Virus record (IMG/VR): IMGVR_UViG_651053023_000012 | Span: 1 to 14,727 of that record | DNA: 14,727 bases | Source of the DNA: a virus | Taxonomy: Duplodnaviria > Heunggongvirae > Uroviricota > Caudoviricetes | Strand: one strand, 5' to 3' | Part shown: in pieces, positions 4,828 through 4,904 of the stretch | Numbering within the stretch: position 1 is the first letter of the stretch | Layout: every line of letters begins with the position of its first letter | The notes under the pieces: generated by a model | Told to the model about the DNA's origin: nothing | Databases searched by the model: none | The model's input: the letters and a program-made list of their open reading frames with translations, nothing else | Position numbers and translations under genes: made by a program

Positions 4828-4904
4828 TGGACCGCCACCGAGGACTCGAACCTCGCACACTCAACTTAAAGGGTTAACACTCTTTCTTGGTGAACTGGTG
4901 GCGG
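4828..4904 (-). tRNA. Non-canonical tRNA-like element (possible degenerate tRNA or pseudo-tRNA); the apparent anticodon is UUU with C33.
   Basis: Perfect 7-bp acceptor stem (CCGCCAC/GTGGCGG), discriminator U, CCA, and a canonical T-arm (CGAGG-TTCGAGT-CCTCG). The D-arm lacks GG and pairs only with two G-U wobbles. The anticodon stem TTAAC/GTTGA has loop CCTTTAA. Confidence 0.35.

Follow-up and report, generated by a model that had tools for sequence, protein, structure and literature searches.

The 77-nt tRNA-like element at positions 4828-4904 (minus strand) of the window, by which we mean the whole 14,727-nt stretch of DNA analysed, is probably a degenerating allele of a lambdoid-phage tRNA gene, and we put the probability of this reading at roughly 0.6. 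The initial annotation had offered two possibilities, a decaying tRNA or an unusual tRNA-like RNA with some other role. The first was supported by tRNA-Arg homologues in the same slot, by loss of U8 and G18 together with weakened D and anticodon stems, by an unstable cloverleaf, by excess variation without compensation, and by a borderline covariance-model score. The second found no support, as neither a tmRNA nor any other Rfam family matched and no alternative fold was stabilised beyond chance. Other members of its family already carry tRNA-Lys or tRNA-Arg annotations, and erosion of prophage tRNAs is ordinary; of more note is the family itself, in which a very common prophage tRNA has undergone an Arg-to-Lys anticodon switch together with a change to C33.

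Sequence and fold of the element

The limits of the gene, encoded CCA included, were taken from the sequence, from ARAGORN (-ps95) and from the Rfam RF00005 alignment. Read as minus-strand RNA (RNA position n corresponding to window position 4905 - n), it runs CCGCCAC CA GUUC ACCAAGAAA GAGU G UUAAC CCUUUAA GUUGA GUGUG from the acceptor 5' strand through the variable region, and CGAGG UUCGAGU CCUCG GUGGCGG U CCA from the T arm to the 3' end. All parts of a cloverleaf can be assigned (7-bp acceptor stem, 4-bp D stem, 5-bp anticodon stem with 7-nt loop, 5-bp T stem with 7-nt loop). The acceptor stem, discriminator, CCA and T arm are as sound as originally described and were located exactly on the minus strand: the 5' strand CCGCCAC (4898-4904) forms seven Watson-Crick pairs with GUGGCGG (4832-4838), followed by the discriminator U73 (4831) and the encoded CCA (4828-4830), and the T arm CGAGG-UUCGAGU-CCUCG (4839-4855) has a fully paired 5-bp stem.

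The degenerate part of the element comprises C8 (4897), A9 and the D arm GUUC-ACCAAGAAA-GAGU (4879-4897 in all, minus strand). The occurrence of C8 instead of the conserved U8 is a feature absent from the initial annotation. A18 (4887) stands in place of G18, and since the D loop ACCAAGAAA holds a single G, there is no G18G19, in agreement with the earlier remark that the conserved GG was missing. The accompanying statement that the D arm pairs solely through two G-U wobbles was wrong, as the stem has four pairs, of which U12-A23 and C13-G22 are Watson-Crick and G10-U25 and U11-G24 are wobbles. The anticodon arm UUAAC-CCUUUAA-GUUGA (4861-4877, minus strand; ARAGORN and Rfam alignment) consists of a 5-bp stem, including a U28-G42 wobble (4876) particular to the lineage of the window allele, and a 7-nt loop that had been read correctly, with C33 (4871) at the U33 position and the apparent anticodon UUU (4868-4870). 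From the conserved tRNA core, U8, G18 and U33 are replaced by C8, A18 and C33; A14, G19, A21 and the T-loop/T-stem set (G53, U54, U55, C56 and A58) are kept. The fold z-score of the element was -4.0 against shuffles, which, together with hundreds of syntenic homologues called as tRNA, lifts it far above chance. At minimum energy, the window allele folds into a rod plus a minihelix, not a cloverleaf.

Genomic context

The window belongs to a lambdoid prophage found in E. coli of pigs, and the tRNA cluster (4672-4981, minus strand) lies between the antitermination gene Q and the lysis genes. The placement of the element within this cluster was confirmed. It is preceded by a tRNA with anticodon CAU (4906-4981, minus strand; 72.6 bits; tRNA-Ile in RefSeq (PGAP), hereafter the ileZ-like tRNA-Ile2) and followed by tRNA-Thr(UGU) (4750-4825, minus strand; 73.8 bits), with tRNA-Gly(UCC) (4672-4746, minus strand; 65.6 bits) as the last gene of the cluster. 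Spacers in the cluster are 1-3 nt long, with 1 nt (4905) between the element and tRNA-Ile2 and 2 nt (4826-4827) between the element and tRNA-Thr. The tRNA-Thr(UGU) gene is 100% identical to the host core gene thrU (at least 99% identity in 5,419 of 5,424 matching records).

Upstream of the cluster lie an AraC-type HTH gene (5008-5721, minus strand) and the gene for the phage antitermination protein Q (6247-6921, minus strand; Pfam PF06323, E = 2e-91; PGAP). The position of Q upstream on the same strand places the cluster in the late operon. Promoter-like sites at 6242-6214 and 5018-4991, and terminator-like hairpins after the cluster at 4409-4240 (minus strand), are consensus matches only. The lysis cassette downstream begins with a holin gene (3821-4246, minus strand; Pfam PF16931; PGAP), and holins and endolysin together span 3176-4246 (minus strand).

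At least 20 genomes among the matches listed, all from pigs (enterotoxigenic, O139, O141), are 100% identical to the window over the 501 bp around the element. The exact window allele was present in 27 E. coli records, those listed all being from pigs, and in 3 of 119 IMG/VR loci. In the window strain, an ORF at 702-2132 fuses the N-terminus of DUF1441 to the C-terminal domains of tail protein J, so that the head and tail (morphogenesis) genes have been deleted from the prophage of this strain; the arrangement is common to only two genomes.

Recognition by gene finders

With default settings, ARAGORN called the three neighbouring tRNAs in the whole window and missed the element, and Rfam at window scale gave the same result. 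No tRNA match to the element was returned by Rfam for a 171-nt stretch (E <= 10), and a search of eight loci gave no match for the window, E24377A and PPompW alleles. These absences at larger search sizes arose because filters hid matches of 29-31 bits. When an 85-nt stretch was searched alone, as in the covariance-model check proposed by the initial annotation, RF00005 matched over its full length with 29.3 bits (E = 6.7e-5) against a gathering score of 29, aligning model positions 1-71 to 4831-4904 with no non-standard pair flagged (cmscan). The reading of the window and E24377A alleles as devoid of tRNA signal was overturned by searching the element alone (29-31 bits). ARAGORN at 95% of its default threshold likewise called a tRNA-Lys(ttt), with the same fold as drawn in the initial annotation. 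The tmRNA model, proposed for checking at the same time, drew a blank: ARAGORN found no tmRNA, and matches within the Rfam tRNA/tmRNA clan were to tRNA only.

Rfam tRNA scores were 66-74 bits for the neighbours, 53 for a Lys allele with U33 (L014), 43-52 for Arg alleles, 44.4 for the main C33 allele described below, 31.3 for the E24377A type and 29.3 for the window allele. RefSeq (PGAP) annotates the Ile, Thr and Gly genes at the locus but not the element. The window allele is separated from the main C33 allele by seven transitions (U8C, C11U, U15C, G18A, C25U, C28U and C63U), and it is these that bring it below the default threshold of ARAGORN and leave it without PGAP annotation.

Gene family and the anticodon switch

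Relatives were collected by BLAST with the 81-nt element against 5,426 complete E. coli genomes and phage records. A family member was found in 1,232 of the genomes and in 52 phage records. In O157 Stx phages, the slot is occupied by argN (tRNA-Arg UCG; 76% identity to the element), and prophage genes for tRNA-Arg(UCU) are 80-84% identical (83.5% for the copies in ATCC 25922 and CFT073), so that homology to argN and prophage tRNA-Arg extends over the full length (76-84% identity over 96-100% of the element). A large class of relatives at 87-93% identity carries the same loop, CCUUUAA.

Like argN, the element lies directly 3' of an ileZ-like tRNA-Ile2(CAU), downstream of Q and on the same strand. 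The order of Ile2 followed by the slot, downstream of Q, recurs in loci L001, L002, L004-L007 and L010, and the order Ile2-Arg(UCU)-Thr-Gly in L115, L147, L133 and others. The comparison with related prophages suggested by the initial annotation showed that the equivalent slot holds either a tRNA-Arg or "tRNA-Lys" alleles with C33 and UUU; the element, with UUU and C33, has neither an arginine anticodon (UCU, UCG or CCU) nor U33. Among the wider relatives, recognised by the T-arm and acceptor sequences they share, are an Arg(CCU) of Salmonella diarizonae, the Lys(UUU) allele L014, whose loop has the normal U33, alleles in which the loop is 8 nt long, and several plainly degenerate forms. The scan of genome contigs for relatives comprised 10 loci and had little cross-species depth.

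All outgroups and high-scoring family members are tRNA-Arg with U33, and the loop of the C33 class differs from that of its Arg relatives by U33C and C35U (CUUCUAA to CCUUUAA), with few changes elsewhere. The C33 class is therefore an Arg-bodied gene turned to a lysine anticodon. It keeps A20, an identity element for ArgRS. The loop CCUUUAA is almost invariant in the class and was present in about 113 of 119 sampled Ile2-X-Thr loci, compared with 5 that hold an intact Arg gene. Since C33 and UUU occur throughout the class, they are inherited traits and not damage private to the window copy. The initial annotation had listed them among the non-canonical features of the element; both are real, but the window copy inherited them from a widespread class.

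Annotation by PGAP was compared in an evenly spaced sample of 60 E. coli genome matches, in which membership of the C33 class was assigned by identity band and four alleles were read. All 19 Arg-type copies were annotated, compared with 16 of 39 full-length C33-class copies (about 60% unannotated). We found no description of an Arg-to-Lys C33 prophage tRNA class in the literature searched.

Tests of constraint

As an intact set, we used 10 alleles, namely nine Arg alleles and the Lys allele with U33. In these, U8, the GCUC/GAGC D stem and G18G19 are invariant, 99.5% of stem positions are paired, and four pairs show compensatory double changes; their covariation score was 0.174, compared with 0.111 in shuffles, with none of 500 shuffles as high. 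The 23 distinct C33 alleles were 94.0% paired, equal to shuffles, and contained no compensatory double change, a result whose power is limited by the shallow divergence within the class. The T-stem position A51xC63 (52/64 in sequential numbering) is mismatched in 21 of the 23 alleles and an A-U pair in 2. Here the window allele has U63 (4841), the ancestral state; most C33 alleles have C63 and hence the mismatch. Broken-stem or deletion alleles were found in L023, L056, L141, L158, L162, L164 and L106, and the PPompW type has a 1-nt deletion in the D stem.

For an unbiased sample, 119 IMG/VR loci were defined solely by their flanking Ile2 and Thr genes; these held 27 slot alleles. Over the same 64 contigs, nucleotide diversity was 0.031 for the slot, 0.0024 for Ile2, 0.0057 for Thr and 0.0087 for Gly, so the slot varies 4-13 times more than the three neighbouring tRNAs. 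Flanking non-coding DNA was rejected as a neutral yardstick across the IMG/VR loci, as the flanks are mosaic and unalignable (diversity about 0.45); linked tRNAs and one relative with homologous flanks were used for this reason. In that relative, E. coli 08-00022, the nearest with homologous flanks, the slot differs from the window at 9 of 77 positions, compared with 0-1 of 76 in the neighbouring tRNAs and 3.6% in the adjacent coding sequence; the E. coli 08-00022 allele has a D-stem break of its own. A gap of less than 62 nt between Ile2 and Thr was found in none of the IMG/VR loci, compared with at least 119 loci in which the slot is filled.

The element combines functional homologues with the loss of invariant positions and with more variation than linked tRNAs, and its class lacks compensatory evolution, as far as the shallow divergence allows this to be seen. 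The constraint tests, which have limited power, all point to relaxed constraint on the C33 class.

Some observations run counter to decay. The T arm and acceptor stem of the window allele are perfect, and better than those of the main C33 allele. C33 by itself is not lethal to a tRNA, as yeast tRNA-Leu(GAG) works with it (PMC13492127). In the Ile2-X-Thr-Gly cluster the C33 class is far commoner than intact Arg genes, its loop hardly varies, and the slot was never found deleted. These three observations can be explained by hitch-hiking or by function.

The window allele

The window allele is the most eroded full-length allele found. It has C8 and U11 in common with the E24377A-type sub-lineage (about 27% of sampled C33 loci), and C15, A18, U25 and U28 are private to its own lineage. 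The energy gap between cloverleaf and minimum-energy fold is 11.1 kcal/mol for the window allele, 7.0 for the E24377A type, 2.7 for the main allele and 0-2.1 for intact relatives, and the four private changes destabilise the cloverleaf more strongly than do 86% of random four-transition sets. The lineage-specific stem substitutions all keep nominal pairing in the form of G-U. As stem changes that yield only G-U pairs are expected by chance in about 34% of cases, this is weak evidence of residual constraint; given this and the energy loss, structure-preserving selection in the window lineage found no support. Selection for a new fold was rejected: 44% of random four-transition sets placed on the inferred ancestor fold at least as stably. 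Several of the lineage-specific substitutions pair within the minimum-energy fold of the window allele.

Alternative explanations

One alternative, which we consider unlikely, is that the element is a working non-canonical tRNA-Lys(UUU) with an Arg body that reads AAA/AAG, escapes cleavage by defence nucleases and replaces the host tRNA they destroy. UUU is the anticodon of the host tRNA attacked by PrrC, by PARIS AriB and, secondarily, by P2-OLD (PMC2610378, PMC11464382, PMC12409363, PMC12445682). PrrC cuts directly 3' of U33 (PMC2610378), the very base changed in the element. AriB needs U36AAUC|A41 and U16, and its cleavage is abolished by U39A and impaired by U16C (PMC12409363); by inspection, the element has U36-A-A-G-U-U41 and C16 at these places. 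The anticodon stem UUAAC/GUUGA is free of the paired CNG motif needed by P2-OLD (PMC12445682). Judged by inspection against these studies (PMC12409363, PMC12445682), the element has the anticodon of the target with the recognition motifs absent. Phage variants of tRNA-Lys(UUU) rescue from AriB (PMC11464382, PMC12445682), the tRNA-Thr(UGU) of lambdoid phage 21 protects against P2-OLD (PMC12445682), and yeast tRNA-Leu(GAG) functions with C33 (PMC13492127). The C33 class is moreover very common, with a conserved loop and, in its main allele, 44.4 bits.

Set against this is the state of the window allele, which has neither U8 nor G18, a weak D stem and a cloverleaf disfavoured by 11 kcal/mol; to judge by the predicted energies and by C8 and A18, this argues against translation rescue by this allele. 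In the class as a whole, compensatory changes are absent, diversity is 4-13 times that of the neighbouring tRNAs, and many broken alleles reach an appreciable frequency. Next to the element, tRNA-Thr(UGU) matches host thrU exactly and retains both the UAAUCA and the CNG motifs; it was therefore rejected as a nuclease-resistant variant in its own right, and the cluster as a whole does not appear tuned for nuclease evasion. In the sources consulted we found no test of C33 blocking PrrC, and the gamma-toxin nuclease is unaffected by U33C (PMC2275089). A broader version, in which the whole C33/UUU class, possibly with the window allele as an eroded member, is a phage countermeasure invisible to PrrC, PARIS AriB and P2-OLD, seems to us improbable.

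We also think it improbable that the element owes its retention to a part in RNA processing instead of decoding or, in a variant of this explanation, to the binding of a host enzyme by a tRNA-shaped decoy. In E. coli, polycistronic tRNAs that lie close together are separated by RNase P, for which a minihelix of acceptor stem and T arm suffices as substrate. As the genes are 1-3 nt apart (1 nt and 2 nt on the two sides of the element), an RNase P cut at the 5' end of the element would create the 3' end of tRNA-Ile2. Such a module would need only the acceptor/T-arm helix and the CCA, both of which the window allele has in perfect form despite its decayed D arm, and no IMG/VR locus was found with the slot deleted. 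In the unbiased sample, however, the acceptor stem, with 6 of 14 positions variable, is not clearly more conserved than the D-arm region, with about 8 of 19; alleles that break the acceptor or T stem exist (L164, L162, L148), and the common A51xC63 mismatch speaks against strong selection for a minihelix. 3' exonucleases could mature tRNA-Ile2 without a cut at the element. An exact 78-nt deletion is unlikely as a neutral event over short times, so the missing deletions say little.

That the element is a chance tRNA-like fold or an unrelated RNA (tmRNA fragment, Y-RNA-like element or attachment-site relic) is effectively refuted by hundreds of tRNA genes that are homologous to it over the full length and syntenic with it: ARAGORN found no tmRNA in the window, and the overlaps with YrlA (17.7 bits) and SNORD56 (14-18 bits), the weak Rfam hits that such a reading could call on, are far below the gathering scores and result from the T arm of the element combined with the D arm of the neighbouring gene. 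Matches to tmRNA, Y-RNA-like and other RNA families were accordingly set aside as sub-threshold noise.

Proposed history of the gene

Taking the element as a decaying tRNA gene, its ancestor would have been a tRNA-Arg of the argN-slot family, located just after an ileZ-like tRNA-Ile2 and downstream of Q. In one lineage, the loop CUUCUAA would have become CCUUUAA by U33C and C35U, giving an Arg-bodied RNA with a lysine anticodon and C33, and the resulting class would then have drifted. In the lineage found in pig E. coli, U8 and G18 have been lost in addition, and three G-C stem pairs have become G-U. Judging from its position downstream of Q, the element is probably co-transcribed with its neighbours in a late-operon tRNA precursor. 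Cleavage by RNase P at its 5' end, which would free the 3' end of tRNA-Ile2, has probably been retained, as may be expected from the intact acceptor/T-arm helix and CCA and the spacers of 1-3 nt. The released RNA, with U8 and G18 lost and an unstable cloverleaf, probably folds poorly into the L shape and would contribute little or nothing to decoding.

For the window, the outcome amounts to a further prophage tRNA gene undergoing erosion, and it accounts for the disagreement between gene finders. At the level of the family, an Arg-to-Lys anticodon switch with U33C is documented in a very common prophage tRNA, of which annotation pipelines call about 40% of the C33-class copies tRNA-Lys and skip the rest. 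If the class were a countermeasure after all, roughly 15% of sequenced E. coli genomes would carry an anti-defence tRNA that had so far escaped study. As phage tRNA-Lys(UUU) variants are known to defeat PARIS, whether the main allele rescues from tRNA-Lys-directed nucleases is a cheap question. If it does, the C33 class is a new anti-defence element; if it does not, the "tRNA-Lys" annotations deserve a pseudogene flag.

Comparison with known tRNAs

The closest known counterparts are argN and argO of Shiga-toxin and other lambdoid phages, which follow Q in the order ileZ-argN-argO. The element shares with them the slot 3' of an ileZ-like Ile2, with Q on one side and lysis or toxin genes on the other, the unusual C1-G72 start, U73 (G73 in some alleles), the CCA, the T arm and the D-arm frame. 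It differs from them in having UUU instead of UCU, UCG or CCU, in C33, in the loss of U8 and G18 and in a weaker D stem, and its Rfam score is 29 bits compared with 43-52 for the tRNA-Arg relatives. The main C33 allele, annotated "tRNA-Lys" in phage PhiR47_1, in PPompW prophages and, by PGAP, in many E. coli chromosomes, is the same gene in the same slot with the same loop, at 88-92% identity.

Among tRNAs with a known role in defence, tRNA-Lys(UUU) of T5, which acts against PARIS AriB, and tRNA-Thr(UGU) of phage 21 and the T-even phages, which acts against P2-OLD, resemble the element in being phage-encoded, in having the anticodon of the target and in differing from the host tRNA at positions read by the nuclease (PMC11464382, PMC12409363, PMC12445682). 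These tRNAs are otherwise canonical and their rescue has been shown experimentally, whereas the element has a damaged core, and it differs from host tRNA-Lys because of its Arg ancestry and not because a Lys tRNA acquired point changes. Yeast tRNA-Leu(GAG) is, like the element, a natural example of C33 in an otherwise decodable 7-nt loop, in this case in an elongator tRNA; unlike the element, it is encoded by a eukaryotic chromosomal gene, has a canonical core, and its function has been shown genetically (PMC13492127).

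Relatives of the element

In the PPompW-type prophages (L002, positions 1581-1656 of that locus, and L007), a common C33 allele has lost one nucleotide of its D stem by deletion (GC-C/GAGC). About 11 of the 60 genome hits in an evenly spaced sample carry this allele, which is called as tRNA-Lys by ARAGORN and is left unannotated by PGAP. The third slot of the same prophages is filled by an intact tRNA-Arg(UCU).

A set of 82-nt relatives at IMG/VR loci (L110, L021/L033/L063/L067, L041, L076 and L172) shares the acceptor and T arms of the element and has a variable region of 9 nt. 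Since their anticodon loops (ACCAGAU, ACGUAUU and ACAUAUU) likewise place C at position 33, a second branch of the family also shows C33. The resulting anticodons, CAG, GUA and AUA, are mismatched to the tRNA body.

A same-slot relative whose anticodon loop has 8 nt (CUUUUUAU) is present in E. coli M1 (L009, positions 401-478) and at a second locus, L099. It scores 47.3 bits with Rfam, is annotated by PGAP as a 78-nt tRNA-Lys, and is assigned the four-base anticodon 'tttt' by ARAGORN. Its architecture is that of +1 frameshift-suppressor tRNAs.

State and likely cargo of the prophage

An ORF at 702-2132 (-) joins an N-terminal DUF1441 part (residues 22-72) to domains of tail protein J, namely the second Ig, tail-tip and receptor-binding domains, and is followed by a tail-fibre assembly gene (1-633, -). 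The fusion implies that the head and tail genes were deleted, leaving the prophage of this strain defective; the arrangement was found in only 2 of 5,426 E. coli genomes. Within the tail-fibre assembly gene, the Rfam family IS009 gives a strong full-length match (41-239, -, 230 bits); here the 'sRNA' family model seems to span protein-coding DNA.

An ORF on the opposite strand (2512-2982, +), flanked by the lysis genes and the tail remnant, had no match in a Pfam search. In related genomes, PGAP places a lipopolysaccharide core heptose(II)-phosphate phosphatase in the stretch that aligns here; the annotated gene is probably the counterpart of this ORF, a likely cargo (moron) gene. A hok/sok toxin-antitoxin locus (9377-9701, -) consists of a Hok/Gef ORF (9377-9589) and a sok RNA (9527-9701, 110 bits). 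The stretch containing it (~8712-9683) is an insertion or deletion difference, because it is absent from the prophage of strain K_EC180, which is elsewhere 97-99% identical.

Surroundings of the tRNA cluster

An AraC-family HTH regulator gene (5008-5721, -) separates Q from the tRNA cluster; at this place Stx phages carry the late promoter region alone. A promoter-like site (5018-4991) is located just upstream of tRNA-Ile2, and three terminator-like hairpins (4409-4240) follow the cluster. In L014, an IMG/VR prophage contig, the sRNA family STnc100 matches four times in tandem (2265-3380, -, 77-132 bits) downstream of the tRNA pair.

In tRNA-Gly(UCC) (4672-4746, -), one acceptor-stem pair is U6-A67, versus C6-G67 in the PhiR47_1 copy, a compensatory difference of the type that would be expected of a constrained neighbour. 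The tRNA-Thr(UGU) (4750-4825, -) shows 100% identity to thrU, a core gene of the host, with at least 99% identity in 5,419 of 5,424 matching records, and on this identity is a straight copy from the host. It still has the targets of PARIS AriB and P2-OLD, the UAAUC|A and paired CNG motifs, and as a host copy it differs from the tRNA-Thr of phage 21, which is resistant.
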